A stretch of 64,000 nucleotides of DNA from NCBI GenBank assembly GCA_037481775.1, contig JBBFKZ010000008.1, positions 1-64,000 on the forward strand. The letters run 5' to 3'. Under the pieces are notes generated by a model, which did not search any database, was not told the origin of the DNA, and worked only from the letters and a program-made list of their open reading frames with translations. The position numbers and the translations under genes are program-made. Positions 35,766 to 56,994 of this stretch are shown piece by piece (within the stretch, counting starts at the first letter, position 1; each line of letters starts with the position of its first letter). This DNA comes from Candidatus Bathyarchaeia archaeon (GTDB lineage: Archaea > Thermoproteota > Bathyarchaeia > Bathyarchaeales > Bathycorpusculaceae).

Positions 35766-35782
35766 GGTTGGATTATCCATTT
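35766..35782. promoter_or_regulatory. 17-bp palindromic operator copy A (chlID operon)
   Basis: GGTTGGATTATCCATTT, directly downstream (in transcription direction) of the TATA box at 35784-35789. Confidence 0.7.
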
Positions 35783-35795
35783 ATATAAATCTTGG

Positions 35796-35822
35796 TTCAA
35801 CTAAAATTTAATACAGGTTGAA
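35796..35822. promoter_or_regulatory. 27-bp upstream element copy A
   Basis: TTCAAC-taaaatttaatacag-GTTGAA, 6 nt from TATAAA at 35784-35789. Confidence 0.7.
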
Positions 35823-35916
35823 TACATAAAAGGGGGATAACAAAACCACGAAATAAGCCATAAAAAGTAAAAAAGGAAAATGCGTCCTTTACAACAATAG
35901 AGCCATTCAGAGTTGC

Positions 35917-37098
35917 TTATGGATACGTGAACACTCCAGTTAACTCAGCATTGAAGAACCTTTGTATGTACTCCGCATGTATCGCAGCAGGATCAATGTC
36001 TTGGAACAAATTTGGATGTAGCCACTTTGCGAAGTATAGCAAACCAATTACGTCACGATCAACCAACAGCACGCTTTTAATCACATAGACAGTACCGTTC
36101 TTCACAGCTTTTGTTTCGCTTAGCTCTGGCCTAGCTAATATGCTGTTTCTCAAAGTTTGCAAAGACGCTAAATCTTCACCATCCAAGTATGTGGACATCC
36201 GAATAACAATAGCAGGGTTAGCCTCGGCCACGAATTCTGCGCTCAACTGTGGACTGGAGGTACTGGCATTTTCAGCTATATTTATTCCACCAGCATCAAC
36301 TATCAGTTTATCGTAAGAACCACCTGGACCCGTGCTGAACCAGAGCTTGTACCATTCGAAGTAGACTAACGGTTTCTCGCTTCGTGAAAGAGCGGCAACT
36401 CGATTTTTAACCAGATTCACATAATACGTTTCGTAGTTTATGAACTCCGTTGCTTTCTGCTCTGCTTGCAATATCAAGGCTAAATTGCGTATGCACTCAT
36501 ATCTTCGGCTGCCTGTCAAGGTATCCTCCATAACGGCTATTCCCGCATCTTCTAGTTTCTTTCGGTTTTCATCGGTTAAGCGTTGGCTAGCAAGAACCAA
36601 ATCAGGCTTTAACTCAACTATCAGTTCAAGATTCGGTTCCATGTCAGTGCCTACGTCAGGTAATTCCAAAATTGACTTGGGCAGGATTGCTTCAGCGTCT
36701 GAGCTTAATGAAGCACTCCGCGCTACGACTTTGTCGCCTGCACCTAACACATGCACAATCTCTATCATAGTAAGACAAATAATGCGTTTCACAGGAACAG
36801 CTACGGTAACATTGGCGCCATTCGCGTCAACCACAGTGATGTTCGAGATCTGTGGTGCTTCCGGTGATTGGGTAGCGTTTGGTTCAATTGTTGGCGAAGG
36901 CGAGGGCGTTGGCGTAGCCGTAGAAGATGGTGTCTGCGAAGGCGTAGGAGAAGCACTGGTTGGGGATTGGATAGGAGATTGTGAAGGAGTTGGTGTTGGC
37001 GATGTTGATGGCGATTGCGATAGGATGTTGTAGCCGCCGTAAACCGAAGCCGCAACTACAACAGCAACAATAGCAGCCACAAGAATAACACGCCTCAA
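35917..37098 (-). CDS. BtuF/FepB-like substrate-binding protein 2
   Basis: Paralog of SBP1: TM anchor, P/S/T linker, PNLELIVELKPD, AGGINIA, AKWLHP, ends FTYP. Confidence 0.88.
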   Translation of the reverse strand: MRRVILVAAIVAVVVAASVYGGYNILSQSPSTSPTPTPSQSPIQSPTSASPTPSQTPSSTATPTPSPSPTIEPNATQSPEAPQISNITVVDANGANVTVAVPVKRIICLTMIEIVHVLGAGDKVVARSASLSSDAEAILPKSILELPDVGTDMEPNLELIVELKPDLVLASQRLTDENRKKLEDAGIAVMEDTLTGSRRYECIRNLALILQAEQKATEFINYETYYVNLVKNRVAALSRSEKPLVYFEWYKLWFSTGPGGSYDKLIVDAGGINIAENASTSSPQLSAEFVAEANPAIVIRMSTYLDGEDLASLQTLRNSILARPELSETKAVKNGTVYVIKSVLLVDRDVIGLLYFAKWLHPNLFQDIDPAAIHAEYIQRFFNAELTGVFTYP

Positions 37099-37188
37099 AA
37101 ACTATTCACCTCCTCATTATTGGTTATTGAAACTTTGTAAATCAAACAGATTGCTGTAATTTGCCAATGTTTGCGCGGCAACATGCTT

Positions 37189-37205
37189 GGATGGATTATC
37201 CATAG
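37189..37205. promoter_or_regulatory. 17-bp palindromic operator copy B (SBP2)
   Basis: GGATGGATTATCCATAG, 5 nt from TATAAA at 37211-37216. Confidence 0.75.
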
Positions 37206-37222
37206 TTTTATATAAACATTAG

Positions 37223-37249
37223 TCAAACTTGAGTTAAGATGAGGTTGAA
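37223..37249. promoter_or_regulatory. 27-bp upstream element copy B
   Basis: TCAAAC-ttgagttaagatgag-GTTGAA, 6 nt from TATAAA. Confidence 0.7.
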
Positions 37250-37863: not shown

Positions 37864-38388
37864 TTAATGCATGAATGTCGCGCGGGGGTTTTGTCCCAAA
37901 ATTTGTGCAACCGCTCGCAAACTTAGCGTGTCGCAAATCTTCTCCACGATCTGAACAGATTCCTCATCAGGTCCTGCTACAGCACCGCGCACTATGTAAG
38001 GGAAAAAGCCCTCATCATATGCAGCAAGATAAGTTGCTAGAACACAGTTCAGGGCGCTAAGCCCTATGAGAATTACAGTATCGCAGCCTTTATCCCGAAT
38101 CATATGGGCTAACGCCGTCTTGACAAAAGCGTTTTGATGAGTCTTAATAACTTTGGCATCTTCAGCCATCGCGGTTAAACTTGGGATAAGTTCAAACTCT
38201 TTTGTCCCGGGCACAATACCTCGCTCGGCATAGGAATGGTAAGTAAAGATGATCGGGGCGCACGCTTTTCGAAATATTGAGATCGCTTCGCTCATTGCAG
38301 TTATGCGCTCAGTCACTGATCGTTTCAGTCCTTCAGACAGTTCTAGCCAGCCATTCTGAACATCAATCACAATCAACGCCGGTTTCAT
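37864..38388 (-). CDS. Isochorismatase-like cysteine hydrolase
   Basis: ALIVIDVQN, KTHQNAF, GLSALNCV (D-K-C triad). Confidence 0.85.
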   Translation of the reverse strand: MKPALIVIDVQNGWLELSEGLKRSVTERITAMSEAISIFRKACAPIIFTYHSYAERGIVPGTKEFELIPSLTAMAEDAKVIKTHQNAFVKTALAHMIRDKGCDTVILIGLSALNCVLATYLAAYDEGFFPYIVRGAVAGPDEESVQIVEKICDTLSLRAVAQILGQNPRATFMH

Positions 38389-38451
38389 AGTAATGCGCTC
38401 CTATTGTGGTTATGCTTTATTCCCCTGATGTCGCTCATAAAGGAGTACTCA

Positions 38452-41400
38452 TCATTTCTTTTCATTGGTGCTTTCAAGCAAACCATCAACCTGCAAATAA
38501 ATCTGTTGTAGCTGCCTTTTCATATCCTCTGAGGCGTGCCACATGCCCCGTTCAATAGCTTCTAAAAGGCGTTCAGTCATGTTGTATAATGCGTAAGGAT
38601 TCACTTCTTTCAGCCACTCCTGCATTGATTTATCAAGGACAAATTTTTGCGCTAATTCCTCATACATCCAGTCTTCTATGACTTCTTCTGTTGCATCCCA
38701 TCCTAGCACGTAATCCATCTGTCGGGAAAACTCGGCGGCTCCATGGTAGCCATGTCTTTTCATGCTTTCAATCCACTTAGGATTAACGAGGCGGGCTCTG
38801 AAGCAATACTTAATCTCTTCAGCGGTACTTCTAATTTTAACTCTTTTGGGATCAGAAGTGTCCCCATAAAACGAGCGCGGCGCTTTCCCAGTAATCGTCT
38901 TGATGGCTACATCCATGCCGGCGTGATAAGAATAAGCATCGTCTATCTGTAAAGCGTCATATTCACGTTGATCCCAATTTTTTACGGTCAGTTCAACTTT
39001 GCTTAATCGTTTCTTAAACAAGTCAGGCGCTGTTAACCCAAAGTTTTTTCTGCCATAAACATAGCAACCCCAAGTGACATAAATATTTGCCAAATCCTTC
39101 TGGTCTTTCCAGTTTTTGGAATCTATCGCTTCATTAACGCCTGACCCGTAACCACCGGGTATATCGCCGAAGATTCTGTAGCATGCTTCTTCACGCGCCT
39201 TAACAGCATCGACGCCCTGCCCAATACGTTCAGCTATTTCCTCCTCCACATGTTTTATGATGTAGTTTTTGTCAGAAGTTTCTTTTAGTTCAGCAACTAA
39301 AGCAACGGCTTCGTCAATAAGATGAACAATGTTAGGGAAGGTATCTCTGAAAAGGCCACTTATTCGGACAGTAACGTCAATTCTCGGCCGCTTCAGTACT
39401 TCAAGCGGAATAGGTTCTAAGCCTATAACCCTACCGCTGGATTCTTCCCAGATTGGCTTAACGCCCATTAAATAGAGAATTTCAGCTATATCGTCGCCGT
39501 TTGTTCTCATGCAATCAGTGGCCCAAACAACAATAGCAACTGTTTCTGGATACTTCCCCTCTTCTTCCAGATACCGTTTTAGTAAGGCGTCGCCTAGTTC
39601 TACGCCAACCTTCCAAGCGGCAACAGAGGGCACACAACGGGGGTCTATTGAGTAAAAGTTGCGTCCGGTAGGCAAGATGTCGGCGTTACCGCGTGTTGGA
39701 GCACCAGAAGGCCCTGTTGGTACATAATTACCGTGACATGCAGATGTAGTGTTAGTTAGCTCTTCGGTTGTTGCATTCAATGCAGGAGCAAGAAAATTGG
39801 AAATATAAGATAGACAGTGCCGCAACTTGGCATTAACCTCGCCGAACAGTTCATAAAGCAAAGAATCAATTTTTTCTTCTTTGAAATTTACAGCATGGAA
39901 TCGGTTTATTAGTTCAAGTGCAAGTTGGTTCAACTCGTCAAGAACATCGCCATTAGTTCGGTTATCTTGACGCAGAGCACCGCGATTTGCCAGCAACTCT
40001 TCATAGTTGTAACCTTTCAATTCAGCCAATGACTGACGTAAAGAGGGAACACTGCCATTATCTAGCCGCGTCAATGCTACCAAAAACTCTTCTAGCCTCG
40101 AGTCCGTGGGAGGCTCGCCTAGCACATGTAATCCGTCTGTGATCTGCGCGTCAGATAATTCATTCAAATAGCCATGCAGCTGCTCTACAAAGGCATCAAA
40201 ATCCGCGAACGCCTCTTCTTTAGTGACTTCTAAATCGCTGTTGAGGTTAGCTTGAACTACGGCGTCCCAGATTAACTTCTTAAGAATTTCAAGTTTTCCA
40301 GGGTCAGCAGTTTTGGCATGATAATACTCTTTCAGTTGAACACAGATTTTAGCTAAATCATCATAGGAGTCAGCGTTATGCATTACTGGAATTAGATAAT
40401 CAACTAAACAGGCGTAACTCCGTCTTTTCGCGCATGTACCCTCGCCTGGATCGTCGATAAGATATGGGTAAACGTTGGGCAAATCGGAAATAACAATGTC
40501 AGGAAAACATGAAGCGGAAAGCCCAACAGATTTACCCGGCAGCCATTCCATTGTGCCATGTTTGCCAAAATGAATGATAACGTCAGCTTTGAAAACTTCC
40601 CGAATCCAACGATAATAAGCATAATAATGATGTGGGGGAGGAAGATCGGGGCTATGATAAATAGATGCAGGGTCAGTTGTGTAGCCTCGAGGAGGCTGGA
40701 GACCGATGAATACGTTACCATTAATTATTCCAGGAATTAATAGGTCGCCTTTGTAATTGAAAAGTTTCCCAGGTGGCTTCCCCCAATGCTTAACCAGTTT
40801 CTCTTTGACATCTACAGGCAACTCATCAAACCATTTAATGTACTGAGCAAGGGGGATTTTAGCCACAGCTTTTTCTGCAAGTTCATCAGGACTTAACCAT
40901 CTTTGATCATTAGTTAACCCGCTAATTATTTTTTCCATCAATTTCTGGCCGTTTTCAGGTAAAAACTCCAGTGAATAGCCTTGTTTCTGCATTTCTCGCA
41001 AGAGGTTTATAGCTGAAGCTGCAGCATCGAGTCCTGCAGCGCTACCAATATTGTCATTTCTTGGTGGATAGTTATGAAAAATCAGTGCAACCTTCTTTTT
41101 CTCGTTAGGAATATATCGCAGTTTTGCCCAGTTAATGCTTAATCTGACAAGCTTGTCAAGACGCTCAGGAATTATTACATGCGAGGTTATTTTTGCGCCG
41201 GTCACCGGATCTTTTTCAGAGATCTTTCTAGCGGCTATTGGCACAGTGATTACCATACCATCAAACTCAGGCATTGCAACATTCCATGCTACTTCAGTAA
41301 AACTTAATCCCAGTAGACTACTACACCACTCCTCAAAAGTGTTATATGTTACAATCGACTTGAGAACGGGAACCCCAAACATCTTAAAAAGCTCGTTAAC

Positions 41401-42195
41401 CGATTCGGAGCTTGGCATGAACGCTGCAACAGAATGTGCAAGTGTGCTGATGACAATGTCAACAATAGGTTTTCCGTCCTTCATGAAGTAGTTTTCGATA
41501 ATCCACTTCAAACTTTTAGCTGAAACATCATTCGCTGAGAAAAACACTAAAATTGCATTCGCGCCGTGCTGTTCGATAGAGCGGATTAGACTGTTGGCGA
41601 GGTTAATGTCGCCCGTTTTTAAAGGGTCGTTATGGAAAAAAATTCCAACTGTGGGTCTTCCACGAACGTATACTTTTTCCATGTATTCAGCTAATGTGCA
41701 GATATGACCAAAGTTTGGGTGATATATTGCTTGCAATGGCATCTTTTTTGGCGGCTTAGCCTCGAAATGGCTTCCCGCGAAACGGTTTGCTAAAAAAAGC
41801 AGCAGGTTTTCATAGTTTTCTATTCCACCATAATTGATGTATTGATGGATCTTTTGATAATCATCTTGGTTAACAGTGGAGCAAGCGACGATTTCTGGGT
41901 CAGATTGGACATCCGACGCGAACAAAGGCACATGTGCATCGCGCAACGCGGCTATAACGCGATCAAAGCCTGTGAACCCTTTTTTGCCACCCATTAAATG
42001 CAGGAGTGTTACGTGAGATGTTCGCGCAAAATTGATGAATGCATCCAGCAGTTTTGGGTCTGCTAAGTCTTCTGCAGTTCGTGGAAAAACATCTATAAGC
42101 ATACCCGTCTTTTTAGCGAGGGTCTTAACTGCTAGGGTAATAATTTCTACTTCATGTGAAAGAACCACAAAAGCAAGTCTCATTTTTTGCTTCAC
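38452..42195 (-). CDS. cobN: CobN/ChlH family chelatase large subunit (paralog 2)
   Basis: MPEFDG, NYPP, HFGKHGTMEWLPGK, PSGAPTRG, LPTGRNFY, NPKWIESMKRHGY; clearly paralogous to 26851..30606. Confidence 0.9.
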   Translation of the reverse strand: MKQKMRLAFVVLSHEVEIITLAVKTLAKKTGMLIDVFPRTAEDLADPKLLDAFINFARTSHVTLLHLMGGKKGFTGFDRVIAALRDAHVPLFASDVQSDPEIVACSTVNQDDYQKIHQYINYGGIENYENLLLFLANRFAGSHFEAKPPKKMPLQAIYHPNFGHICTLAEYMEKVYVRGRPTVGIFFHNDPLKTGDINLANSLIRSIEQHGANAILVFFSANDVSAKSLKWIIENYFMKDGKPIVDIVISTLAHSVAAFMPSSESVNELFKMFGVPVLKSIVTYNTFEEWCSSLLGLSFTEVAWNVAMPEFDGMVITVPIAARKISEKDPVTGAKITSHVIIPERLDKLVRLSINWAKLRYIPNEKKKVALIFHNYPPRNDNIGSAAGLDAAASAINLLREMQKQGYSLEFLPENGQKLMEKIISGLTNDQRWLSPDELAEKAVAKIPLAQYIKWFDELPVDVKEKLVKHWGKPPGKLFNYKGDLLIPGIINGNVFIGLQPPRGYTTDPASIYHSPDLPPPHHYYAYYRWIREVFKADVIIHFGKHGTMEWLPGKSVGLSASCFPDIVISDLPNVYPYLIDDPGEGTCAKRRSYACLVDYLIPVMHNADSYDDLAKICVQLKEYYHAKTADPGKLEILKKLIWDAVVQANLNSDLEVTKEEAFADFDAFVEQLHGYLNELSDAQITDGLHVLGEPPTDSRLEEFLVALTRLDNGSVPSLRQSLAELKGYNYEELLANRGALRQDNRTNGDVLDELNQLALELINRFHAVNFKEEKIDSLLYELFGEVNAKLRHCLSYISNFLAPALNATTEELTNTTSACHGNYVPTGPSGAPTRGNADILPTGRNFYSIDPRCVPSVAAWKVGVELGDALLKRYLEEEGKYPETVAIVVWATDCMRTNGDDIAEILYLMGVKPIWEESSGRVIGLEPIPLEVLKRPRIDVTVRISGLFRDTFPNIVHLIDEAVALVAELKETSDKNYIIKHVEEEIAERIGQGVDAVKAREEACYRIFGDIPGGYGSGVNEAIDSKNWKDQKDLANIYVTWGCYVYGRKNFGLTAPDLFKKRLSKVELTVKNWDQREYDALQIDDAYSYHAGMDVAIKTITGKAPRSFYGDTSDPKRVKIRSTAEEIKYCFRARLVNPKWIESMKRHGYHGAAEFSRQMDYVLGWDATEEVIEDWMYEELAQKFVLDKSMQEWLKEVNPYALYNMTERLLEAIERGMWHASEDMKRQLQQIYLQVDGLLESTNEKK

Positions 42196-42268
42196 CGTCT
42201 ATTCAATACTTCATAAAAAAGGAAGAGGAACCATGGCGACTTGTGCCAGTATCATTTGCTGCAAAACG

Positions 42269-43408
42269 TTATGGATAGGCATATGTGCCCTCCAAGGCAA
42301 CTCCGAAGAAAGTTTGAATCATTTCCCTGTGTATAGCAGTTGGATCTACATCTGCAAAAAGATCAGGATGGAGCCATTTGGCTAAGGTCAGCAAGCCAAG
42401 GGGGTTGCGTGTTCCTGTTCGGAAGTAATGATCCATAACATAGACCTTACCATTTTGGACAGCCTTTGTAGCACTGAGAGCAGGTCTGTTCATTAGCTCC
42501 TCACGCATAGCTTGAAAATCTTTGATGTCGTGAGTTGCACTGCTAATCATGCGGACTATTATGTCGGGGTTGCGCTCCGTAACATACTCAGGACTCAAGG
42601 TTGGATAGGTAACAGTCTGGTTGGCAGCGAGATTTATTCCACCAGCATCGATTATCATCTGATGGGGTAAACTAGCGTTATTGCAACTATACCAAGCTTT
42701 AACCCATTCGTAATATACTAAGGGCTTTTGATCATCTTTCAGATCTTTGACACGATCCTTAACAAGATCAGTTATGCCGTCCATAAATTTGATCAGGGCA
42801 TCAGCCCTTTCCTCTTTACCGAGGATTTCGCCTAGATAAGTTATTATAGGCTTTACACGGTCCGTTTGGGAAGGATTATCAATGATTACAGGAACATGGA
42901 GAAGCGATTCGATTTCAGCGCGGGTATCATTGTTAATTCTAGTATCGGCAACTATCAAATCAGGTCGCATTTCCGTTAAGGTTTCCATGCTTAAACCGCT
43001 TGATCCGTAAACTACTGTCAGGTTTAAAACAGAATCTGGAAAAGTAGAATAAAGGTCACGCCCAACTATTTTATCGCCGGCGCCTATAGCATAGATTATT
43101 TCTGTAAAACCACTTTGTAAGCTTACAATACGGGTCACAGGAAGGGCAATAGTTACTTGAGTCCCCGTGACATCCACAACAGTAATTGTCTTGTTTTGTG
43201 GTGTTGGTTGAGTTTCTGTAGGAGCTGGCGTGCTTGTTGTTGAAGGAGAAGCAGTACTCGAGGGCGAGGGAGAAACAACTGGACTTGACGAAGGCGATGT
43301 TGACGGTGACGAAGGCTGTGGCGAATAGAGGAAGATGTATCCACCATAGACAGAAGCGATAACAATAACTGCAACAAGAATTGAAACTATAAGCCCTGTT
43401 CGTTTCAA
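42269..43408 (-). CDS. BtuF/FepB-like substrate-binding protein 3
   Basis: Paralog of SBP1/2: TM anchor, P/S/T linker, [30 protein letters not shown], ends YAYP. Confidence 0.88.
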   Translation of the reverse strand: MKRTGLIVSILVAVIVIASVYGGYIFLYSPQPSSPSTSPSSSPVVSPSPSSTASPSTTSTPAPTETQPTPQNKTITVVDVTGTQVTIALPVTRIVSLQSGFTEIIYAIGAGDKIVGRDLYSTFPDSVLNLTVVYGSSGLSMETLTEMRPDLIVADTRINNDTRAEIESLLHVPVIIDNPSQTDRVKPIITYLGEILGKEERADALIKFMDGITDLVKDRVKDLKDDQKPLVYYEWVKAWYSCNNASLPHQMIIDAGGINLAANQTVTYPTLSPEYVTERNPDIIVRMISSATHDIKDFQAMREELMNRPALSATKAVQNGKVYVMDHYFRTGTRNPLGLLTLAKWLHPDLFADVDPTAIHREMIQTFFGVALEGTYAYP

Positions 43409-43506: not shown

Positions 43507-43523
43507 GGATGGATTATCCATGC
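43507..43523. promoter_or_regulatory. 17-bp palindromic operator copy C (SBP3-cobN2)
   Basis: GGATGGATTATCCATGC, 5 nt from TATAAA at 43529-43534. Confidence 0.75.
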
Positions 43524-43540
43524 ACATATATAAATTTTGT

Positions 43541-43567
43541 TTAAACTCAAGTTAAAATAAAGTTGAA
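43541..43567. promoter_or_regulatory. 27-bp upstream element copy C
   Basis: TTAAAC-tcaagttaaaataaa-GTTGAA, 6 nt from TATAAA. Confidence 0.7.
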
Positions 43568-46522: not shown

Positions 46523-47320
46523 ATGAGCCACTTTAATTTATCAGCGGAAATTGACAGATACGCGTATACAAATTCCTTATCAAAGAATAGCCCAATAACT
46601 AAACTTCTCCTCGCACTTTCATTGCTGTTCATAAGCGTCTTATCGCCGTCCCCAGTGGTGCCCATAGCCGTATTTTTAACAAGCAGCAGCATGATTTTAT
46701 TCTGCGCAAAAATCCCATGGCGCTTCTATCTTAGGCTACTGTGGTACCCAACTGTAATTGTTGCATTAACCTGCGTCATAATTGCGCTCTTTTTCGGCTA
46801 CAAAGAACCGCTTGCAGAGGTAAATCTGCTTGGGTTCAAATGGATCATTTTCAGAGATGGCGTAGCTACAGGAGTCACCACGTTCTTTAGAGTGGCAGGG
46901 GCGCTTTCAAGCCAGTTTTTCCTTGTTCTAACAACGCCAATGACAAGCATATTGATAGTTCTCAGAAAAGCCCGTATCCCCAAGATCATAGTGGAAATGT
47001 CATTACTTATCTACAGGTATATATTTGTCTTCATAGAGGTCATGGAAACCATGCACACCGCTCAAGAGCTACGCCTCGGATATTCGGGTTGGCTGAGGAA
47101 ACTTCGATCAACCGCCATGCTTATTGGAAATCTTTTCATACGAACGTTAGAGCAGGGAGAGCGCACCTTCATCGCCATGAGCGCCAGAGGATACGACGGC
47201 AACATCCGCGTTCTTGAAGACCTGCCGAGGCCAAGCTACGCCGCCTTATTGGGAATCACGCTTTTCGCTGTCGCGCTTGCAATAACTGCATATTTAACAA
47301 TGCACATCGGGATTGTGTAA
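46523..47320 (+). CDS. cbiQ: ECF cobalt transporter T component CbiQ
   Basis: IDRYAY, LTTPM, LIYRYIFV, AQELRLGY, AMSARGYDG. Confidence 0.92.
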   Translation: MSHFNLSAEIDRYAYTNSLSKNSPITKLLLALSLLFISVLSPSPVVPIAVFLTSSSMILFCAKIPWRFYLRLLWYPTVIVALTCVIIALFFGYKEPLAEVNLLGFKWIIFRDGVATGVTTFFRVAGALSSQFFLVLTTPMTSILIVLRKARIPKIIVEMSLLIYRYIFVFIEVMETMHTAQELRLGYSGWLRKLRSTAMLIGNLFIRTLEQGERTFIAMSARGYDGNIRVLEDLPRPSYAALLGITLFAVALAITAYLTMHIGIV

Positions 47321-47325
47321 TCAAA

Positions 47326-48189: not shown

Positions 48190-48893
48190 GCGGCATCTTT
48201 GATCCAGCGCTAATTGGTGTTGTCTCCATAGGATTGCTGCATGGGTTAGAGCCGGGGCACGGTTGGCCCATAGCGCTGCTTTATTCGACACGGACTTCGA
48301 AGCCAACCTTCTACGCCCTTGTCAGCTCAAGCATAATTTCATTCTTTCACTTTATCTCCTCAATTGCCGTTGTCATAATCTACGTTGCCGCTAGCGCGCT
48401 GATAAACTTCACAAGCCCACTTCTAAAATACATTGCATTTGCCGCTTTGGTGCTGCTTGCAGCCAAATTTTTCATGGAAAAAGTTGATTCGGAACTGGAA
48501 AATCAGCACGGGCATTTACATGATAACGTGGAAGACATGGAACATGAACACGAACATGAGCATCCAGGCATTGGCTGGCACACGCACCCGCATTTCCATC
48601 CAAAACGGATGAATAATCTGAGTTTATGGAAAATAGCGAGTTGCGCGTTTTTCCTAGGCTTTGCCCATGAAGAAGAATTTGCGCTTCTGGCTTTAGCTAT
48701 GGGCGGTGTTAACCCGCTTTTTATGATGACGGCTTATGGATTGGCGGTAACCGCAGGGCTTGTGGGCGTCACCATTCTTGGAATAAAAATGTATGGAAGG
48801 GTTAGAGCAAGAATCAGCAGATATGAGAGATATTTCCCAAAGGTTAGCGGCACAGTGCTTCTTGTACTGGCGTTTTGGCTACTTTTTGGCTAG
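48186..48893 (+). CDS. His-rich nickel/cobalt transporter (NiCoT/RcnA-like)
   Basis: GLLHGLEPGHGWP (HxxxPGH motif), central HGHLHD...HEHEHEHP..WHTHPHFH loop, about 6 TM helices; ATGA-coupled to cbiO. Confidence 0.75.
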   Translation: MSGIFDPALIGVVSIGLLHGLEPGHGWPIALLYSTRTSKPTFYALVSSSIISFFHFISSIAVVIIYVAASALINFTSPLLKYIAFAALVLLAAKFFMEKVDSELENQHGHLHDNVEDMEHEHEHEHPGIGWHTHPHFHPKRMNNLSLWKIASCAFFLGFAHEEEFALLALAMGGVNPLFMMTAYGLAVTAGLVGVTILGIKMYGRVRARISRYERYFPKVSGTVLLVLAFWLLFG

Positions 48894-48895
48894 CT

Positions 48896-49723
48896 CTAAT
48901 GCAGGCGGTATCCACGGGGCGTGACCATTCTTTCATTGACGATTCTAGTGGTGGAGTTGCCCACGATTATTGCTGTAGCCATGTCTATCTCATGTTCGAG
49001 CATGCTTCCGAGCGTAGTGATGACCACTTTTTCGCCGTCTCGTCCAACCGCCTTAACAATGCCAACAGGGGTCTCCTGGCTTCTGTATTTAAGTAGGATT
49101 TGATGCGCTTTCGCTAAAGGTTCTTTACGGCCTTGACTTTGGGGATTATATAGCACAATCACAAAATCAGCTTCCGCCGCAGCGTTCAACCTTTTTTCGA
49201 TAAGCTGCCAAGGAGTCAGAAGGTCGCTGAGGCTTATTACGGCGAAATCGCCAACCAAAGGCGCTCCAAGCGCGGCCGCTGCCGCTGTTGCCGCTGTTAC
49301 TCCTGGAATAATTTCTATGGGAACAGCTGCTTTTTCATTGGCTGCAACTTCCAAAACCACGCCAGCCATGCCATAAACCCCTGGATCGCCACTGCTAATC
49401 ACGGCTACCCGCTTGTTTTCCAACGCCTTAGCCACAGCCACTCTCGCTCTCTCAACTTCTTGTCCCATACCTCCCGAGATAACCTCGATGGCGCTTGTGA
49501 TTACTGGCTGGATTAGTTTTATGTAGGTTTTATAGCCTATAATGACATCCGCGGCTTCTATCGCTTGCCTAGCTTTAGGTGTAAGGTGCTCAAGGCCGCC
49601 GGGTCCTATGCCGACTACGCTTATTCGCCCTCGGCTATGGCCACTGTTACACCATTCAGCTTCATTTTCTTTAGAATCAGTTTTGCTTTTGCTCCTGCTT
49701 CTATCAATGCTGCTCGTTCGCAT
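48896..49723 (-). CDS. cbiH: Cobalt-precorrin-3B C17-methyltransferase; start uncertain, possibly frameshifted fusion with cbiG
   Basis: VVGIGPG, SSGDPGVYGMAG, LGAPL..DFAVISLSDLLTPW, YNPQS, TPRGY. Confidence 0.9.
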   Translation of the reverse strand: MRTSSIDRSRSKSKTDSKENEAEWCNSGHSRGRISVVGIGPGGLEHLTPKARQAIEAADVIIGYKTYIKLIQPVITSAIEVISGGMGQEVERARVAVAKALENKRVAVISSGDPGVYGMAGVVLEVAANEKAAVPIEIIPGVTAATAAAAALGAPLVGDFAVISLSDLLTPWQLIEKRLNAAAEADFVIVLYNPQSQGRKEPLAKAHQILLKYRSQETPVGIVKAVGRDGEKVVITTLGSMLEHEIDMATAIIVGNSTTRIVNERMVTPRGYRLH

Positions 49724-50706
49724 ACTCCTCCAACACCAATTTTTTGTTCCACTAATGGCGAATCAGGTGAAAGATCTACATGTTTTAGAGCCCGAAGCGC
49801 CTCAATTTCCAAGAAAGCAACGGACAACCCTAATTTTTTAGCAGCGCCTAGAATAGCTGCTGAATCCTTTTTTATGCTGACGGTGGCCAAGCGGTCAACA
49901 CGCTCCAGCGGAAGATCCACACGCGCCAAAGCGTATTTCACAGCTTCTACAACTTCATTTTCACTGACGTTTTCTCTTGCGCCTAAGCCCACAACCACCG
50001 TTTTAGGTTTAAGTATTGTAGCAGGCTTTGCCAACTGATCCTTAGGCACTTTCTCTCTTGTGATGAGTGCGCCTGCATCGAAGTCATTCAAGATTTCTAT
50101 GGCTTTCTTGATGCTGTCCGCTTGTTTTATTTCATAACCTGAAATTTTGTTTTCTGGAATTTTTACGTCGCCGACCAAAACAAGAGCCAGTCGGCTGTCG
50201 TTCACCAGCGCGGCGTTTACTGCTGTGAGGCTCTCAGGGTTCTCTATGGATAAATGAAGAGTTAGGGCAAGTTCTTCGATGCTTTGTTTTCCCATTACAT
50301 CGGATGCGGTAGTGATGACTGGCACTGCATCTATCCCCTCAGCAAGCAGTCTTGCAAGTTCGTTAGCTCTTCCGTAATGTCCAGAAAGCAGGCTGATGAC
50401 GAAACGGCCGGAAGCATCAACACATAAAACCGCAGGGTCAACCAGCTTGCTCTCGAGGTATGGCGCAACTGCCCGGATGATTATTCCCGTAGCCATGACT
50501 GCTATTATGGCGTCGACTTTGCGGTAAATTTCCTTGATGAACTCGTCAAGTTTCTTATCCAGCGAGGATACGCCGGCCTGGAGGTATTTTTCTGGCGCAA
50601 ACACCTTGCAAGGTAAACCTAACGCATCCAGTGCGGCTTTGATTTTAAGTGCAGTTTCTACGCCGCGGCGCGTGATCGCGATGACAGCTATACCTCGCTC
50701 AAACAT
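49621..50706 (-). CDS. cbiG: Cobalt-precorrin-5A hydrolase
   Basis: MATGIIIR, DPAVLCVD, SLLSGHYGRAN, PVITTASD, GVCERAAL, GVTVAIA. Start placed at ATG 50706. Confidence 0.9.
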   Translation of the reverse strand: MFERGIAVIAITRRGVETALKIKAALDALGLPCKVFAPEKYLQAGVSSLDKKLDEFIKEIYRKVDAIIAVMATGIIIRAVAPYLESKLVDPAVLCVDASGRFVISLLSGHYGRANELARLLAEGIDAVPVITTASDVMGKQSIEELALTLHLSIENPESLTAVNAALVNDSRLALVLVGDVKIPENKISGYEIKQADSIKKAIEILNDFDAGALITREKVPKDQLAKPATILKPKTVVVGLGARENVSENEVVEAVKYALARVDLPLERVDRLATVSIKKDSAAILGAAKKLGLSVAFLEIEALRALKHVDLSPDSPLVEQKIGVGGVCERAALIEAGAKAKLILKKMKLNGVTVAIAEGE

Positions 50707-51469
50707 CTTTAACGCCTTTTCTAAAGCCCGTTGTGAAAGAAGGCTCATAGAGCTTGGAGAAATCGAAAGCTTCAGGGTTTAATACGCGTCCCACGAAGAT
50801 CAGAGCCGTCTTAGTTATTCCAGCAGCCCGAACTTTCTCAACTATGTCGCCTAAGGTGCCCTTAACGATCTTCTGATCAGGCCACGTAGCCTTGTACACT
50901 ACAGCAGCAGGCGTGTCTTCTGGGTATCCGCCTTTTTTGAGTTCTTCAACAACCTCGGCTATTTGCGGCGTGCCGAGAAAGATTACCATGGTAGCTTGAT
51001 GCCTCGCAAGTTTTCGTATGCTTTCAGACTTAGGCACGGGTGTTCTGCCTTCAGGACGCGTGATGATAACGGTTTGTGAAACATTAGGTAACGTCAACTC
51101 ACGCTTCAGACTCGCCGCGGAACCCTGTAAACAGCTTACACCTGGAATTATGGTGTAGGGGATCTGCTCTTTTTCGAGAAAAGCAATTTGCTCTTGAATG
51201 GCGCCGTAAAAGCTTGGATCGCCATCATGTACTCTGGCCACAAGCTTGCCTTCCCGGGCAGCTTTGGCGAATACTGCGAAAACTTCATCTCGGTGCATTT
51301 TGGCACTGTCGTATAGCTCCACGTTAGGCTTAGCGTACTTGAGAATTTCAGGGTTCAGAAGCGAGCCCGTGTATATGACAACATCAGCTTTTTCAAGCAT
51401 TTTCTTTCCTTTGATGGTTATAAGCTCAGGGTCGCCTGGGCCCGCGCCTATGAAGACAACTTGACTCAC
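50699..51469 (-). CDS. cbiF: Cobalt-precorrin-4 C11-methyltransferase
   Basis: FIGAGPGDPELITIKG, YTGSL, RVHDGDPSFYGAI, ELTLPNVSQTVIITR, YKATWPD, SKLY. Confidence 0.93.
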   Translation of the reverse strand: MSQVVFIGAGPGDPELITIKGKKMLEKADVVIYTGSLLNPEILKYAKPNVELYDSAKMHRDEVFAVFAKAAREGKLVARVHDGDPSFYGAIQEQIAFLEKEQIPYTIIPGVSCLQGSAASLKRELTLPNVSQTVIITRPEGRTPVPKSESIRKLARHQATMVIFLGTPQIAEVVEELKKGGYPEDTPAAVVYKATWPDQKIVKGTLGDIVEKVRAAGITKTALIFVGRVLNPEAFDFSKLYEPSFTTGFRKGVKDV

Positions 51470-52230
51470 AATAAATCCTCCTTTTCTCGATTAATTGGAA
51501 ACTCGCTCCTCTTTACTATTGCCATGGAAAAATAATCTTCAGGTATATTCCACTCTGGAACATCGCCTAATCTACCGATGATAACAGCCTCGTCGGACAT
51601 GCCACATCTTCTAACCAGCGCAACTGTAGCGTTCTTGGTAAATCCTGATTTCTCTAAAATTGGCATGAGAGCTTTGAATCGGTGAGCGCATTTCATGAAA
51701 ACTATGTTATCTGCGTGTTCAGCAGTTTCTTCGATGAGCTTAAAATCAATGTCTGAGGGTATAATTGCGATTACTTCGTCCTTTTCAGCCAAAGGCACTT
51801 GAGCCCGCGCGGCACAGGCGGTTAAGGATGTCACTCCTGGGATTATTTCCATAGTTACATGGGGATATTTCTGTTTTAAAGTTTGAAAAAGATAAATGAA
51901 TGTGCTGTAGAAAAATGGGTCGCCAAGTGTGATGAACGCTATTGTTTTTCCGCTTTCAGCTTTTTCAGCGATCAAGCGAGCACTTTCAGCCCAGCACTTT
52001 TTGGCTTCAGATTCATTTTTTGTCATTGGAAAGACTAACTCGAGCACCTCGGCGGGTTTCGCCCGTTCTTCTAAAATGTGTTTGATGAGGCTAAGCGCTA
52101 TACTCGGCGCGTCAGCATGAGTTTTGGGAACCGCAATCACGTCAACTGTTTTCAAAGTTTTTACAGCCTTGACGGTTATAAGTTCAGGGTCGCCTGGGCC
52201 TACGCCTATGCCGATGAACTTGCCAACCAA
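51466..52230 (-). CDS. cbiL: Cobalt-factor II (precorrin-2) C20-methyltransferase
   Basis: GIGVGPGDPELITVKA, FPMTK, FITLGDPFFYSTF, PGVTS, YFS. Confidence 0.92.
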   Translation of the reverse strand: MVGKFIGIGVGPGDPELITVKAVKTLKTVDVIAVPKTHADAPSIALSLIKHILEERAKPAEVLELVFPMTKNESEAKKCWAESARLIAEKAESGKTIAFITLGDPFFYSTFIYLFQTLKQKYPHVTMEIIPGVTSLTACAARAQVPLAEKDEVIAIIPSDIDFKLIEETAEHADNIVFMKCAHRFKALMPILEKSGFTKNATVALVRRCGMSDEAVIIGRLGDVPEWNIPEDYFSMAIVKRSEFPINREKEDLL

Positions 52231-52240
52231 ACTTTTCCAC

Positions 52241-52834
52241 CTACACTTTTGTAGCAGATATTATTGTAATTGGATTCCTAGCCAGCATCATGGTTCCTGA
52301 AGGAATTGCCTGCCCTTTAGCCACGAAAACCGTTGTCACATCTATTTCTTTGAAGCCTAACTTTTTCATTTCATCCAGAGCAGTAAAGCTTGTTTCCAGA
52401 AGTATTGCGTTCACAACGATGCGGCCATTTTTCTTTAGTTTCTGATGGGAAGCACGCAGCACTTCTCTTAGAACACGGCTTCCGCCCACGAACACCGTGT
52501 CAGCCACAGGCAGATGCAGCAAGACTTCAGGTGCCTTCTCGTTTATAACTTGCACGATGCTCTGCAGATTAAACTTTGCAACGTTAATCTTGGTTAACTC
52601 CACAGCCTTCACATCTTCGTCTATAGCGAAGACTTTGCCTGTGGGAGCTACCTGAAGCGCGGCTTCAACGGTTAATCCGCCTGTGCCGCAGCCAACATCG
52701 ATGACGCAGAAGCCCTCTTTGAGACGCGCTTTCGAGATAGTTAGGGCTCTTATCTCTTCTTTTGTAGGTCCCGGCACAGCCTCATCTTGAGTGAACATAG
52801 TGTCGGGAATGCCGGGCGTCTTATACGTCCACAT
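52241..52834 (-). CDS. cbiT: Cobalt-precorrin-6B C15-methyltransferase (decarboxylating)
   Basis: PGIPD..F, PTKEEIRA, DVGCGTGG, FVGGS, NAILLET, ARNPITI. Start placed at ATG 52834. Confidence 0.92.
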   Translation of the reverse strand: MWTYKTPGIPDTMFTQDEAVPGPTKEEIRALTISKARLKEGFCVIDVGCGTGGLTVEAALQVAPTGKVFAIDEDVKAVELTKINVAKFNLQSIVQVINEKAPEVLLHLPVADTVFVGGSRVLREVLRASHQKLKKNGRIVVNAILLETSFTALDEMKKLGFKEIDVTTVFVAKGQAIPSGTMMLARNPITIISATKV

Positions 52835-53531
52835 GACAATCACCATCTTGGCATTCAGCCGCATGCTTGTGTTGCGGTCTTATGGCTAATACGCATAATG
52901 AGCTAAAACTCATTGTTGAGATTTCTTCCAAGGTACTTGAAATGATCTTTTCATTATTAAGGGTAAGGTTTTCACACACAAATACAGGTGTTTTGTCGCT
53001 AACTCCATTGGCTATAAGAAACTTGGCAATCTCGCTTGGCGGAAAAGCCTTAGGCTCTGGAAGAAGCAGAACATCTTTGCCTTTCTTTACGGCTTCAACA
53101 AGCTCCGCCTGCTTGGCGTTGTCGACGCCCCTGTGGAAACTGAAAAGGCGCGCGTTATCCCAGCACATGCAGAGGCGGGCTGCGCATACTTGCAGCGCAC
53201 TTACGCCTGGAATAACTTCTACTTCAACATGCCTTGCCCTGACAACGCTGAGAAAGGTGCCTAGTAGACCTGAGAAACTGGGGTCGCCTGTTGACAGCAA
53301 AACAACCGCTTTTCCTTCCTCTGCCGCGGCAACAGCTTGCTGAAGAAGATCGTTCACGTTTTTGGCGGTCAACTCTAATGCTTCGCCCTTTATGTCGCCC
53401 GCGAACAGGCGCAGTACTCTTTCAGCGCCGATGACTAACTGAGCGTTTTGCACGGCTTTCCGGGCTATGGGCGGAATGTATTCTGGCGAGCCTGGGCCTG
53501 CACCGACGATTGTGACTTTAGCCACTCTCAT
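52821..53531 (-). CDS. cbiE: Cobalt-precorrin-7 C5-methyltransferase
   Basis: IVGAGPG, LSTGDPSFSG, PGVSALQ, SFH, ENLT. ATG at 53531 overlaps the cbiD stop. Confidence 0.9.
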   Translation of the reverse strand: MRVAKVTIVGAGPGSPEYIPPIARKAVQNAQLVIGAERVLRLFAGDIKGEALELTAKNVNDLLQQAVAAAEEGKAVVLLSTGDPSFSGLLGTFLSVVRARHVEVEVIPGVSALQVCAARLCMCWDNARLFSFHRGVDNAKQAELVEAVKKGKDVLLLPEPKAFPPSEIAKFLIANGVSDKTPVFVCENLTLNNEKIISSTLEEISTMSFSSLCVLAIRPQHKHAAECQDGDCHVDV

Positions 53532-54604
53532 GCACTCTCCACGCTGTTCCATGTGCCCAAAACGTCGCCTTCCAGCGAAACAAGTATCACGTTTACTTTG
53601 ACTTTACTTTTCGCTCTTTCAATAACCCGAGAAGCGATTCTTGTAGCGATTTTTTCAAAAGTCTGCTTTACTATGTTAGCTTGCTTAAGAAGCATTATGG
53701 CTTCTTCAGTGGTGTTTGACGTTAAAATCTTATTTACAAGCTGCGAATCAGCGCCGGCGGCAGCAGCATACGCTGCGATAACTTCGCTTCTTGCATCAGC
53801 CACTTTATGATGCGTATTAAAGATTCCCGCGGCTAACTTCACAAGCTTTCCAGGATGACCGAGCAAGGTAATTTCCTTTACTCCCTTCTCAATTGCCTTG
53901 TCAAGCATGTAACCCATAAAGTCGCCAGTCTGAATTATGGCCTCGTCTGGAACATTAAAGAGTTGCTTAGTTATCCGCTCGCCTATATTTCCAGGCACCA
54001 GAAACACGCGGTCGTAGCCCTTAGCCAGCGCCACGTCAATTTGAGGAACCAGCGAGCGCTTACAAGCTTCCAGCGACAACGGCTTCACCACGCCAGTTGT
54101 TCCGAGAATGGAGATGCCGCCTGTTACACCTAACTTGGCGTTTAGGGTTTTTTTAGCCACTTTCTCGCCTTCAGGAACGCTTATGACAACTTCCGCGCCT
54201 TTCCCCGGAGGAAGCGCTTCTTTAACAGCGGCGATTATCATGCTTCTCGGCACAGGATTAATGGCGGACTCGCCTATGGGCACTTGCAGCCCAGGCTTTG
54301 TTACTACGCCGACGCCCGCGGCGCCCTTCACCGTAATCTTGCCATCATCTGTCAGCCGTACGGAGGCATGGATCTCCAATTTATCTGTAACGTCAATGTC
54401 GTCGCCAGCATCCTTCACAACCACAGCTACTCCGGCATCGCCAAGTTTCCTGCTTTCTTTGACTGGAATCTCGAAGCGGATACCAATTGGTGTAGGAATA
54501 ACCACCCTGTCGACTGGAGCGGAAGTCAATGCTATGGCTGCTGCTTTAGCGGCTGCGGCAGCACATGCTCCCGTGGACAGGCCATATTTTAAAAATCGCG
54601 CCAT
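53528..54604 (-). CDS. cbiD: Cobalt-precorrin-5B C1-methyltransferase
   Basis: GLSTGACAAAAAKAA, KDAGDDIDVT, AINPVPR, GGISILGTTG, GHPGKLVKLAAGIFNTH. Confidence 0.95.
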   Translation of the reverse strand: MARFLKYGLSTGACAAAAAKAAAIALTSAPVDRVVIPTPIGIRFEIPVKESRKLGDAGVAVVVKDAGDDIDVTDKLEIHASVRLTDDGKITVKGAAGVGVVTKPGLQVPIGESAINPVPRSMIIAAVKEALPPGKGAEVVISVPEGEKVAKKTLNAKLGVTGGISILGTTGVVKPLSLEACKRSLVPQIDVALAKGYDRVFLVPGNIGERITKQLFNVPDEAIIQTGDFMGYMLDKAIEKGVKEITLLGHPGKLVKLAAGIFNTHHKVADARSEVIAAYAAAAGADSQLVNKILTSNTTEEAIMLLKQANIVKQTFEKIATRIASRVIERAKSKVKVNVILVSLEGDVLGTWNSVESA

Positions 54605-54610
54605 TGCTGG

Positions 54611-55684
54611 TTAATCCCTTTTGGTTTTAACTTCCTGCTCAGCCAGAGAAAGCAGGGCGTTCAAGATTGCCACTGCCACGGTGCTTCCGCCTTTGCGGCC
54701 TCTAACAATCACGAAAGGAATGGGCAGCTTTGAAATGGCTTCTTTGGACTCAGCGGCGCCAACATAGCCCACGGGAACAGCGATGATTAGGGCTGGTTTA
54801 GCTAAGCCTTGCTTAACTGCGTCGGCAAGTTCGAACGCAGCAGTGGGAGCATTACCGATAACCACGATGGCGCCGTCTAAGCCGTCTTTTACTGCTAAGC
54901 GCATTGCAGCAGCCGCCCGTGTTATCGATTCATCATTAGCTAACTTTATGGCGCGTTTATCATCGATGTACGTGAGGATCTTGGCGCTGAATTTCTTAAG
55001 TCGTGCCTCATTTATGCCTGCCTTTACCATTTTCACATCTGTCACTATTTTTGCGCCGGCTTTGATAGCCGCGATACCGGCGTCCACGGCTTTTTCGCTG
55101 ATAATTAGCAGTTTGGCAAATTCAGGGTCAGCAGTAGCGTGGACAACTCGCTCGATAATGGGCACATTCGAAGGCGGCACATTTTCCAGGAAATCTCCGA
55201 GCGCCTGCCGAATGAGACACATGCTGGTTTTAGCAATCTCGTTTGAGGCTGTTATTGCATACGGGTCAATCAATACATTATCTTCTTTGACTTCTTGACC
55301 GAGCGCCTTCAAGGCTTTTTCTTCTATTATCTCAGCTATCCGCGCGTCAGCGCCTAAAGGTTCACCGTACACAAGCTCTATTCCACGTCCTTTCAGCAAG
55401 GGTTCTTTTTCCTTCATTGCTATGAGTTCTGGAATTTCGCGGGTCGTGTGTACACCAGGCGCAAGAAAGGCAGGAACCAAAACAATCTTTGACACACCCT
55501 TCTTAGCTAGGCTTTCGATTGCGTCAGGAATGGTTGGGGTATTTCTCACCATAAAGGCGATTTCAACCGTTTTGAATATAGCTCTCTTTCGTAAAATGTC
55601 AGCCAACTTCTCCAAGTTTTCCCTGTTATGAGGAAGTTTGCTGCCATGTCCGATTATGATTAAGCCTACTTTGTCCATAAACAC
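54611..55684 (-). CDS. cbiXC: Fused sirohydrochlorin cobaltochelatase (short CbiX) / cobalt-precorrin-8 methylmutase (CbiC)
   Basis: N-terminal IGHGS...PAFLAPGVHTTREIP...EPLG (CbiX); C-terminal RVVHATAD, TDVKMV, IGNAPTA, PVGYVGAAESK, GRKGGS (CbiC). Confidence 0.9.
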   Translation of the reverse strand: MFMDKVGLIIIGHGSKLPHNRENLEKLADILRKRAIFKTVEIAFMVRNTPTIPDAIESLAKKGVSKIVLVPAFLAPGVHTTREIPELIAMKEKEPLLKGRGIELVYGEPLGADARIAEIIEEKALKALGQEVKEDNVLIDPYAITASNEIAKTSMCLIRQALGDFLENVPPSNVPIIERVVHATADPEFAKLLIISEKAVDAGIAAIKAGAKIVTDVKMVKAGINEARLKKFSAKILTYIDDKRAIKLANDESITRAAAAMRLAVKDGLDGAIVVIGNAPTAAFELADAVKQGLAKPALIIAVPVGYVGAAESKEAISKLPIPFVIVRGRKGGSTVAVAILNALLSLAEQEVKTKRD

Positions 55685-55693
55685 TCACTTCAA

Positions 55694-56977
55694 TTAACTT
55701 GGTTCCAAACCGAACAATTTTATTGCAAATTCTATAAGTTTCTTGTCACCGTCTCGTGCGGCTGAACGTAGATTCTCAACTATTGGCACATAAGTCCGCT
55801 TAAGCAAGATGAACGTCAAATCTTCTATGATCTTCTTCTCTTTCGCGCTGACAGATCCCAACATTTTAAGCGCCTCGGCAAGTTCTTTTTGCCGTATTTC
55901 TTCAGCACGTGCGAACAACAATGAAACGATGTCGCTAACAGAGAGGATTTTTATGTCTCTATTCAGCAAGACCAATTCTCTTTCTATGATTTCAGAGGCT
56001 TGTTCTATACTTTTCTGGCGTTTTTGCTTATTCTTTTCAGCTATTAATTGAAGATCATCAATGTCATAAAGTTTTACTTTCTCTACTTCTTGTGCTGCCT
56101 TCTCGACATTTCTCGGGTTTGAAATGTCAATTATGATCAAATCATTGGTGTTTTGACGTTGAGCCATTACTTTCGAAATCGTGCTCTTAGTTAACAAGTA
56201 ATGCGGTGCAGATGTGGAGCAAATAACTACGTCCGCGTCTGAAAGAACCTTCTCTAATTTATCAAATCGTACCGCTCTGCCTGAAAGTTCTTCGGCAAGT
56301 TTTACCGCCCGCTCATATGTCCTATTAGCTATGAAAATAGGTTTTAGACAGCGCCGAGCTAAAGCCTTAGCTACAAGCGTGCCCATCTCTCCTGCGCCCA
56401 TCACTAGAATTTTCTTTTCATCAAGTTTGCCCAGCAACGATTCAGCCAGCTCAACTGCAGCGGATCCAATTGACACGGCGCCTTTGTTAATACCAGTTTC
56501 TTTTCTTACGCGTCTCCCAACGCTCACTGCTCGCATGAACAGGTGCTTAAGGACTATGCCAGCAGTCTTTGCCGATGCGGCGTCTAAATAGGCTTCCCAA
56601 ACCTGATTGAGAATTTGATCTTCACCTATAACCATTGATTCTAGCCCAGAAGCAAGCCGTAAAATATGCCTGAGAGCATCGCCATCCAACGCGTACTCGA
56701 TGGCACTATAGACGTCATCGACTAATCCGCCGGCTCGCTTAGCCAGAAAATCTTTTGCATTCTTGGCGACCTTTTCGCCTTCTTTGCTTACAAGGTAAAA
56801 CTCAACGCGGTTACATGTTTGGAGAAGAACGCATTCATCAACGTTTTCCATGGCGTGAATAATTTTTAGTGCTTCTCGGGTATCTTTGAACGTTACTGCC
56901 TCAATTAAGGGAAGACGCGCCGTTTTATGCGTGATTCTTACGTTGATTATGTGGAGGTCGTCAGCCGAAGAATGCAT
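55694..56977 (-). CDS. hemA: Glutamyl-tRNA reductase
   Basis: LQTCNRVEFY, SGLESMVIGEDQILNQV, SIGSAAV, GAGEMG, NRT, DISNPRNVE. Confidence 0.95.
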   Translation of the reverse strand: MHSSADDLHIINVRITHKTARLPLIEAVTFKDTREALKIIHAMENVDECVLLQTCNRVEFYLVSKEGEKVAKNAKDFLAKRAGGLVDDVYSAIEYALDGDALRHILRLASGLESMVIGEDQILNQVWEAYLDAASAKTAGIVLKHLFMRAVSVGRRVRKETGINKGAVSIGSAAVELAESLLGKLDEKKILVMGAGEMGTLVAKALARRCLKPIFIANRTYERAVKLAEELSGRAVRFDKLEKVLSDADVVICSTSAPHYLLTKSTISKVMAQRQNTNDLIIIDISNPRNVEKAAQEVEKVKLYDIDDLQLIAEKNKQKRQKSIEQASEIIERELVLLNRDIKILSVSDIVSLLFARAEEIRQKELAEALKMLGSVSAKEKKIIEDLTFILLKRTYVPIVENLRSAARDGDKKLIEFAIKLFGLEPS

Positions 56978-56994
56978 GGATGGATAAACCGACC
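56978..56994. promoter_or_regulatory. 17-bp palindromic operator copy E (hemA-cbiXC-cbiDETLFGH operon)
   Basis: GGATGGATAAACCGACC abutting the hemA ATG; TATA-like TTAAATATAA at 56998-57007. Confidence 0.6.

Follow-up and report, generated by a model that had tools for sequence, protein, structure and literature searches.

Conserved sites flanking the TATA box of vitamin B12 gene promoters in a Bathyarchaeia archaeon and two candidate winged-helix regulators

The window analysed here, that is, the first 64,000 nucleotides (nt) of contig JBBFKZ010000008.1 (contig C8 of the 1.82-Mb assembly GCA_037481775.1 of a Candidatus Bathyarchaeia archaeon, genome G000 hereafter), contains five units of cobalamin (vitamin B12)-related genes. 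Each unit is headed by a 17-bp palindrome, site A, placed just after a TATA box, and four of them also by a 28-bp element, site B, placed just before it. A sequence-only reading of the window had interpreted the palindrome as a candidate novel repressor operator of a protein-based B12/cobalt regulon and had put forward the protein encoded at 44613..45452, which carries a winged helix and a DUF7839 domain, as a regulator to be tried on it. That proposal is partly supported by the present analysis: the idea of a regulon stands, the assignment of the regulator is changed, and a second regulatory layer is added. The five units, whose gene content as assigned by Pfam agrees with the original description, and their sites A are as follows:

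24412..35743, minus strand: chlID, SBP1, btuC, btuD, cobN1, cbiZ and an ABC-2 exporter pair (Pfam)
35766..35782, minus strand: site A of the chlID-SBP1-btuC-btuD-cobN1-cbiZ unit, overlapping the last base of the TATA 8-mer 35782-35789
35917..37098, minus strand: SBP2, a BtuF-like binding protein (Peripla_BP_2; Pfam)
37189..37205, minus strand: site A of SBP2, 3 nt past TATA 37209-37216
37864..43408, minus strand: SBP3, cobN2 and an isochorismatase-domain gene (Pfam)
43507..43523, minus strand: site A of SBP3-cobN2, 3 nt past TATA 43527-43534
45481..45488, no strand: TATA box TTTATAAA, self-complementary, between cbiM and the divergent DUF7839 gene
45494..45510, plus strand: site A of cbiMNQO, 5 nt past TATA
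45527..48893, plus strand: cbiM, cbiN, cbiQ, cbiO and a His-rich membrane protein with a weak likeness to Ni/Co efflux transporters
48896..56977, minus strand: hemA and the anaerobic corrin-ring genes (Pfam)
56978..56994, minus strand: site A of hemA-cbiXC-cbiD-cbiE-cbiT-cbiL-cbiF-cbiG-cbiH, abutting the hemA ATG, without site B

The five copies of site A are present at 35766, 37189, 43507, 45494 and 56978 exactly as first written, and they differ by one to three mismatches over 16 positions from GGATGGAT-N-ATCCATCC, every other position of the window having at least four. By chance a mean of 0.13 and a maximum of 2 such matches are expected (200 approximate dinucleotide shuffles of the window), versus the five seen. 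The location just after the TATA box is borne out, the gaps to the 8-mer TATA being -1 (the one-base overlap), 3, 3, 5 and 6 nt. From 70 TATA-anchored sites the consensus GG[A/T]TGGAT[A/T]ATCCA[A/T]CC is obtained, with a commonest TATA gap of 3 nt and most gaps of 2-6 nt. The site is symmetric around a 1-nt centre and lies mostly ahead of the expected transcription start. Archaeal repressors such as MDR1, LrpA and Phr bind in this interval between TATA and start, thereby blocking the recruitment of the polymerase. A cobalamin riboswitch was considered and rejected: as stated originally, none is visible, no Rfam family reaching its gathering score in the window, and the distances from site A to the start codon are just 0-98 nt. 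The leaders had been described as short, which holds for three promoters (hemA, 0 nt; cbiM, 16; chlID, 22) and not for SBP2 (90) and SBP3 (98).

Site A was then followed across the genome with a matrix built from the five window sites, by which left-out sites rank 2nd-11th of 1.82 million positions. The top seven matches are the five window sites, a salvage promoter on contig C3 that heads btuF-btuC-btuD-DUF71-cobT-cobS-cobY and is the top extra match genome-wide, and a TATA promoter on contig C2, without an open reading frame (ORF), beside a B12-radical-SAM and cbiZ-like cluster. The entire 1.82 Mb holds only ten matches with up to three mismatches, and the three beyond the top seven have no adjacent TATA. 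In related genomes, a strict form of the pattern gives 228 matches in 54 of 61 genomes, as compared with 16 matches in 13 genomes for the reversed control. From the 150 matches listed, 20 loci of genomes without DUF7839, mostly perfect palindromes, were chosen before their genes were known. Site A follows a TATA box in 19 of them, heading a unit of an energy-coupling factor (ECF) S-component and a DUF4430 protein (16), btuF (2) or DUF71-cobT-cobS-cobY (1); the remaining locus is a chance match within coding DNA. The S-component profile has its best PDB match in 6FNP (E-value 2.7e-10), which is described in the accessible text of PMC5997447 as ECF-CbrT, a transporter of B12 and cobinamide. In the relatives, site A mostly precedes btuF or a CbrT-like B12 transporter. 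No S-component gene of this regulated type was found in G000. The site or a close variant also heads B12 genes in one Methanomassiliicoccus, one Methanomethyliaceae and one Nezhaarchaeales genome. The sequence-only reading had named occurrence at unrelated promoters genome-wide and lack of conservation upstream of orthologs as adverse outcomes, and neither was observed, as the top extra match heads a B12 salvage operon and site A is kept before orthologs. By this comparative evidence, site A is a real and conserved B12 operator, predicted to be bound by a protein.

Several observations accompany site A in the relatives. In Methanomassiliicoccus sp. UBA345 (L240-L250), the variant site GGATGTATCATCCA lies before cobQ, cbiA, a cbiT cluster, btuF, cobT and a binding protein, and further sites, of ambiguous direction, lie close to genes for corrinoid methyltransferases and ahead of the mcr operon. 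A unit that is widespread in Bathyarchaeia (L068-L086, L336, L340) pairs a CbrT-like ECF S-component with a DUF4430 protein that is anchored in the membrane and weakly like human transcobalamin-1 (E-value 0.018); it is probably an archaeal B12 importer, judging from these similarities. In G052 and G060 (L087, L092, L094, L097) site A is found above binding proteins of about 980-996 amino acids with three Peripla_BP_2 domains. DUF71 genes, which are diphthine-ammonia-ligase-like, recur in B12 salvage operons across lineages (in G000 at C3:81855-82529 and C2:35624-36370), making a corrinoid role possible. Lastly, some TATA promoters carry site A, and in some cases site B, ahead of no real ORF (G000 C2:36581 in L182, G001 in L184:6812, L090:3829, L095:7768, L093:7760 and L198:7763). 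In G000 and G001 the ORF-less transcript would contain a conserved long hairpin next to the B12-radical-SAM/cbiZ-like cluster; three such promoters were checked and gave no Rfam match. These transcripts are possibly B12-repressed small RNAs.

The candidate reader of site A is a winged-helix protein of the DUF4443 family, whose gene was first met beside cobZ-btuF and, in two genomes, directly behind DUF7839. The G000 copy lies outside the window (contig C6, 55019-55645), beside a GPN-loop GTPase gene and without site A, and encodes an N-terminal winged helix followed by a C-terminal DUF4443 domain (PF14544, E-value 1.5e-24). Its structure model, with a predicted local distance difference test score of 96, combines a CggR-like DNA-binding winged helix with a C-terminal domain similar to the GAD domain of aspartyl-tRNA synthetase, and superposes on PH0730 (PDB 2P8T) with Z 19.5 and a root-mean-square deviation (rmsd) of 2.8 over 174 residues. 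The Arg-Asp pair in the EQRDAA motif is nearly invariant in the family. DUF4443 occurs in 59 of 61 relatives, in 40 of 40 good genomes and in 246 of 301 genomes of the phylum. Linkage to B12 genes is seen, in separate lineages, at 4 of 30 near loci (two being the same DNA), 7 of 20 wider loci and 9 of 39 named loci. The gene resides inside btu operons headed by site A in L161, L162 and L180 (three of the 20 wider loci) and in L201, and beside cobZ-btuF or the ECF unit in L116, L119, L123 and L169. In addition, site A is found just past the gene's own TATA at 5 of 24 loci, and at 6 of the 39 named loci including Nitrososphaeraceae; loci of this type are often opposite the cobalt transporter gene cbtA. 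One duplication was noted: L067 (G008:C21) and L104 (G027:C77) hold the same DNA, their genomes being placed in different genera; a single contig was probably binned two times, and the pair is therefore counted once for linkage.

One genome serves as a natural test. G175 (97% complete) has no DUF4443 gene detectable by Pfam or by alignment, and different DNA lies at the gene's usual place; it has no strict site A either, and its two btuF promoters and one SBP promoter keep site B alone. A broken DUF4443 gene in G175 was considered and rejected, the weak match belonging to an unrelated DtxR-like gene. In five genomes from families without DUF4443, all nine strict matches to site A that were checked fall inside unrelated ORFs.

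Other data weigh against this assignment. The DUF4443 gene stands beside the GPN-loop GTPase, with neither a B12 gene nor site A, at 20 of 30 near loci; 30 of the 39 named loci have no B12 neighbour and no site; and 18 metagenome loci, mostly Thermococcus-like, have no adjoining B12 operon or good site A. Strict site A is found in 162 of 301 genomes of the phylum versus 246 for DUF4443, and co-occurrence alone is weak evidence, the family being close to universal here. In G100 and G106, perfect sites stand ahead of the ECF unit, and no DUF4443 could be found; since the neighbouring GTPase is also missing, an assembly gap is suggested. G175 is a single genome, and in its genus cbiM promoters lose site A even when DUF4443 is present. 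Moreover, the GAD-like C-terminal domain is not a known B12-binding fold.

These points leave room for another widespread archaeal regulator to read site A, with DUF4443 being a regulon member or a cofactor. The mostly unlinked DUF4443 genes, the other helix-turn-helix proteins of the genome and the situation in G100 and G106 would fit such a regulator. Yet a gene for a winged-helix protein that bears the site at its own promoter in one lineage and resides within target operons in several others displays the usual pattern of a cognate factor, the nine strict matches checked in the five DUF4443-less genomes are all in unrelated ORFs, and in G175 DUF4443 and site A are both gone. Another reader is thus improbable, and it is very likely, from genomic context and distribution, that DUF4443 is the protein binding site A.

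The second element, site B, follows the pattern [T/A]TCAACyT-n4-T[T/A]AACyT-n-[A/G]GTT[T/A]AAC and ends 5 nt before the TATA box at four of the five window promoters, hemA being the exception. It combines an inner palindrome with a third half-site, which lies further upstream by one helical turn. Its copies and the neighbouring regulator gene are listed below:

35795..35822, minus strand: site B of the chlID unit, ending 5 nt before TATA
37222..37249, minus strand: site B of SBP2
43540..43567, minus strand: site B of SBP3-cobN2
44613..45452, minus strand: winged-helix and DUF7839 regulator, 279 amino acids, proposed reader of site B (Pfam, distribution, structure model)
45448..45475, plus strand: site B of cbiMNQO, overlapping the earliest potential start codon and the predicted transcription start of the DUF7839 gene, which is divergent

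A copy of site B that is left out of the matrix scores among the best 4-5 of the 3.64 million positions in the genome. Among the relatives, 14 of 61 have the DUF7839 protein; the counts are 20 of 201 genomes for the class and 15 of 301 for the phylum. The element parallels this distribution: at up to one mismatch it is present in 13 of 14 genomes with DUF7839 versus none of 47 others, and at two mismatches in 14 of 14 versus 7 of 47. The DUF7839 genes are mostly divergent from cbiM, chlID or btuF, with site B in between. Of six haloarchaeal plasmids examined, four likewise have a homolog (30-34% identity) divergent from a cbiT operon. As a caution, the co-distribution is overstated because the pattern was derived from genomes with DUF7839 and kin are not independent, and the haloarchaeal promoters score nothing on the site B matrix. 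Despite these two points, the genomic arrangement makes DUF7839 a highly probable reader of site B. In parallel, the overlap with its own start suggests that DUF7839 may regulate itself through site B, and the TATA box TTTATAAA possibly serves both cbiM and the divergent DUF7839 gene.

As to what DUF7839 may sense, the fold matches of the whole model are dominated by winged helices, and matches to DtxR-family structures are confined to the helix-turn-helix. The C-terminal domain, compared with the N-terminal domain of CbiL and CbiF, matches tetrapyrrole methylases weakly, with CbiL at Foldseek rank 41 (8XJ3, E-value 9.7e-3, rmsd 4.7). An hhalign match to a tetrapyrrole methylase is colinear over 97 columns (E-value 0.004, probability 8%, controls at most 1%). 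A tetrapyrrole or precorrin intermediate can be put forward only tentatively as its signal.

Two side observations concern site B. On the haloarchaeal plasmids L314, L316, L317 and L318, conserved CAAC and GTTG half-sites surround the TATA box of the cbiT operon, opposite the DUF7839 gene; this element is reminiscent of site B and is not scored by its matrix. In G000 at C5:57080-57397 (L305), a promoter with site B and without site A heads a truncated ORF of 80 amino acids that resembles the start of a BchH/CobN-like chelatase, which has the same type of promoter in G016 (L300); downstream lie three CRISPR-like repeats, each of 37 nt, and a fragment resembling Cas3.

The signal acting at site A had been framed as B12 or cobalt. 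Of that description, the B12 regulon read by a protein and the repressor-like position of the site hold, and the signal now looks like B12 rather than cobalt, because a site A with a single target usually serves a CbrT-like B12 transporter. An alternative is that cobalt or another metal is sensed, following a logic similar to that of NikR or DtxR. Consistent with it, the targets include cbiMNQO, CbtA and CobN chelatases, and one promoter with site B only heads a Mg-type P-ATPase. Against it, single-target copies of site A mostly serve the CbrT-like transporter, btuF or the cobT/cobS salvage genes, and neither family has a conserved His/Cys cluster (in DUF7839 no such residue reaches 60%, and the winged helix of DUF4443 has a single His), acidic metal sites being conceivable. 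Metal sensing is an unlikely explanation overall, with site B the better candidate for it than site A, and a corrinoid is the likely signal of DUF4443.

The sequence-only reading had put the DUF7839 protein among the regulators to be tried on the palindrome. Its gene does lie within the cluster, divergent from cbiM, and site A occupies the stretch between the two genes, here as in relatives. As a reader of site A it was rejected, since it occurs in only 14 of 61 genomes versus 54 of 61 for the palindrome and is not present wherever the palindrome is used. Indeed, perfect TATA-adjacent copies of site A are present in genomes without the gene. Five distant genomes gave no DUF7839, among them G495, G497 and G498 with their site A regulons, and G175 has kept DUF7839 and lost site A. 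Repression by DUF7839 at site A is accordingly very improbable. Least probable of all, site A might be a core-promoter or RNA element instead of a repressor site, as its almost fixed distance from the TATA box could suggest, yet it is confined to B12 promoters, is poorly placed for an RNA element by lying largely before the expected start, and cannot form an RNA hairpin because its 1-nt centre cannot close the loop.

Sites A and B occupy fixed positions at B12 gene promoters, have defined targets, and show co-distribution and linkage with the two regulator genes. From this arrangement, a mechanism can be proposed in which a dimeric winged-helix repressor of the PH0730/DUF4443 family would bind site A between TATA and transcription start. 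When corrinoid is plentiful, the bound repressor would keep RNA polymerase from engaging, so that B12 uptake, salvage and synthesis would be shut off jointly. In parallel, DUF7839 at site B would activate the promoters for cobalt uptake, chelatase and binding-protein genes, perhaps in response to a metal-free tetrapyrrole. Where site B lies across the self-complementary TATA box, binding would activate cbiM in one direction and probably repress DUF7839 itself in the other. Promoters with both sites would then behave as an AND gate, requiring DUF7839 on and DUF4443 off. Repression is strongly favoured as the action of site A, and activation is the probable action of site B. The model of DUF4443 repressing at A and DUF7839 activating at B, taken as a whole, appears rather likely from the sequence comparisons. 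A broader reading can be offered only tentatively. DUF4443/PH0730 might be the missing pan-archaeal B12 repressor (the 'CblR' of unknown identity considered below), sensing corrinoid by a GAD-like domain not known to have been linked to B12. DUF7839 would be an independent second regulator that switches on cobalt uptake and chelation, a degenerate corrin methylase domain serving as its sensor for a precorrin. One TATA box would thus be flanked by both regulators in Bathyarchaeia as a feed-forward and feedback gate, and B12-repressed small RNAs would belong to the regulon.

Some genes of the window are worth reporting in their own right. Two full CobN paralogs (26851-30654 and 38452-42195) and a ChlI-ChlD fusion accompany the anaerobic cbi pathway, which has its own chelatase, CbiX, fused to CbiC (54611-55684). 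A gene similar to cobyric/cobyrinic amidotransferases (57078-58613) has its glutaminase domain ahead of its synthetase domain. The usual order of these domains in CbiA and CbiP is the reverse.

With regard to known systems, Rodionov et al. reportedly described an archaeal 'CBL-box' in 2003 in J Biol Chem. Searches of full-text literature, in which most subscription papers are outside coverage, returned no paper naming DUF4443 or DUF7839 and none on the 'CBL-box' or an archaeal B12 regulator; PH0730 was mentioned in a relevant way only as a family name, and among the papers listed for 'CblR' and related terms only one, on Pyrococcus, was relevant. In the accessible text of that paper (PMC10746257), a predicted cobalamin regulon of Pyrococcus furiosus is listed, citing RegPrecise, with the regulator 'CblrR (unknown)', so that in 2023 this regulon was still without a regulator gene. 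The claim of novelty is thereby reduced, as an archaeal cobalamin regulon with an unknown regulator had already been predicted in print. The Thermococcales 'CblR' regulon resembles the one described here in being controlled, by prediction, through a DNA site and not a riboswitch, and site A is such an element, a palindrome ahead of archaeal genes for the synthesis and uptake of B12; moreover, Thermococcus-like contigs encode a PH0730 ortholog, of the same family as the candidate reader of site A. It differs in that the regulator is listed there as unknown and a candidate is named here, and in that the accessible text mentions no second upstream site; the two may be the same system.

Two proteins are named here as candidates, and Atlas searches brought up no families besides these two. 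The DUF4443 family includes PH0730 of Pyrococcus horikoshii, which has the fold and Pfam domains of the C6 protein and a solved structure deposited as 'hypothetical protein' (2P8T) with no function attached, and a member in Sulfolobus acidocaldarius. DUF7839 has members in Haloferax volcanii, Methanosarcina acetivorans and Methanocaldococcus jannaschii. Site A flags B12 transport genes in uncultured archaea, such as the CbrT-like ECF unit, and its range extends to methanogens and to archaea that oxidise ammonia. In its operator position over the initiation region, site A is similar to the sites of MDR1, LrpA and Phr, from which it differs in family and motif. A winged-helix protein in place of a bacterial vitamin riboswitch is also found in the archaeal regulators of riboflavin (RbkR) and thiamine (ThiR), and RbkR sites about 5 nt from the TATA box, the same geometry as that of site B, are read as activating in the accessible text of PMC5397151. 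As far as the accessible sources go, those systems differ in the vitamin, the motif and the sensor domains, which here are GAD-like (DUF4443) and uncharacterised (DUF7839), and in the two predicted regulators per TATA box here. Finally, the targets are the same as those of bacterial cobalamin riboswitch regulons, namely btuFCD, CbrT, cbiMNQO, cbtA, the cbi/cob genes and chlID-cobN. The sites here are promoter DNA elements, the window having no Rfam match, and two proteins thus appear to fill the role that riboswitches play for B12 in bacteria.

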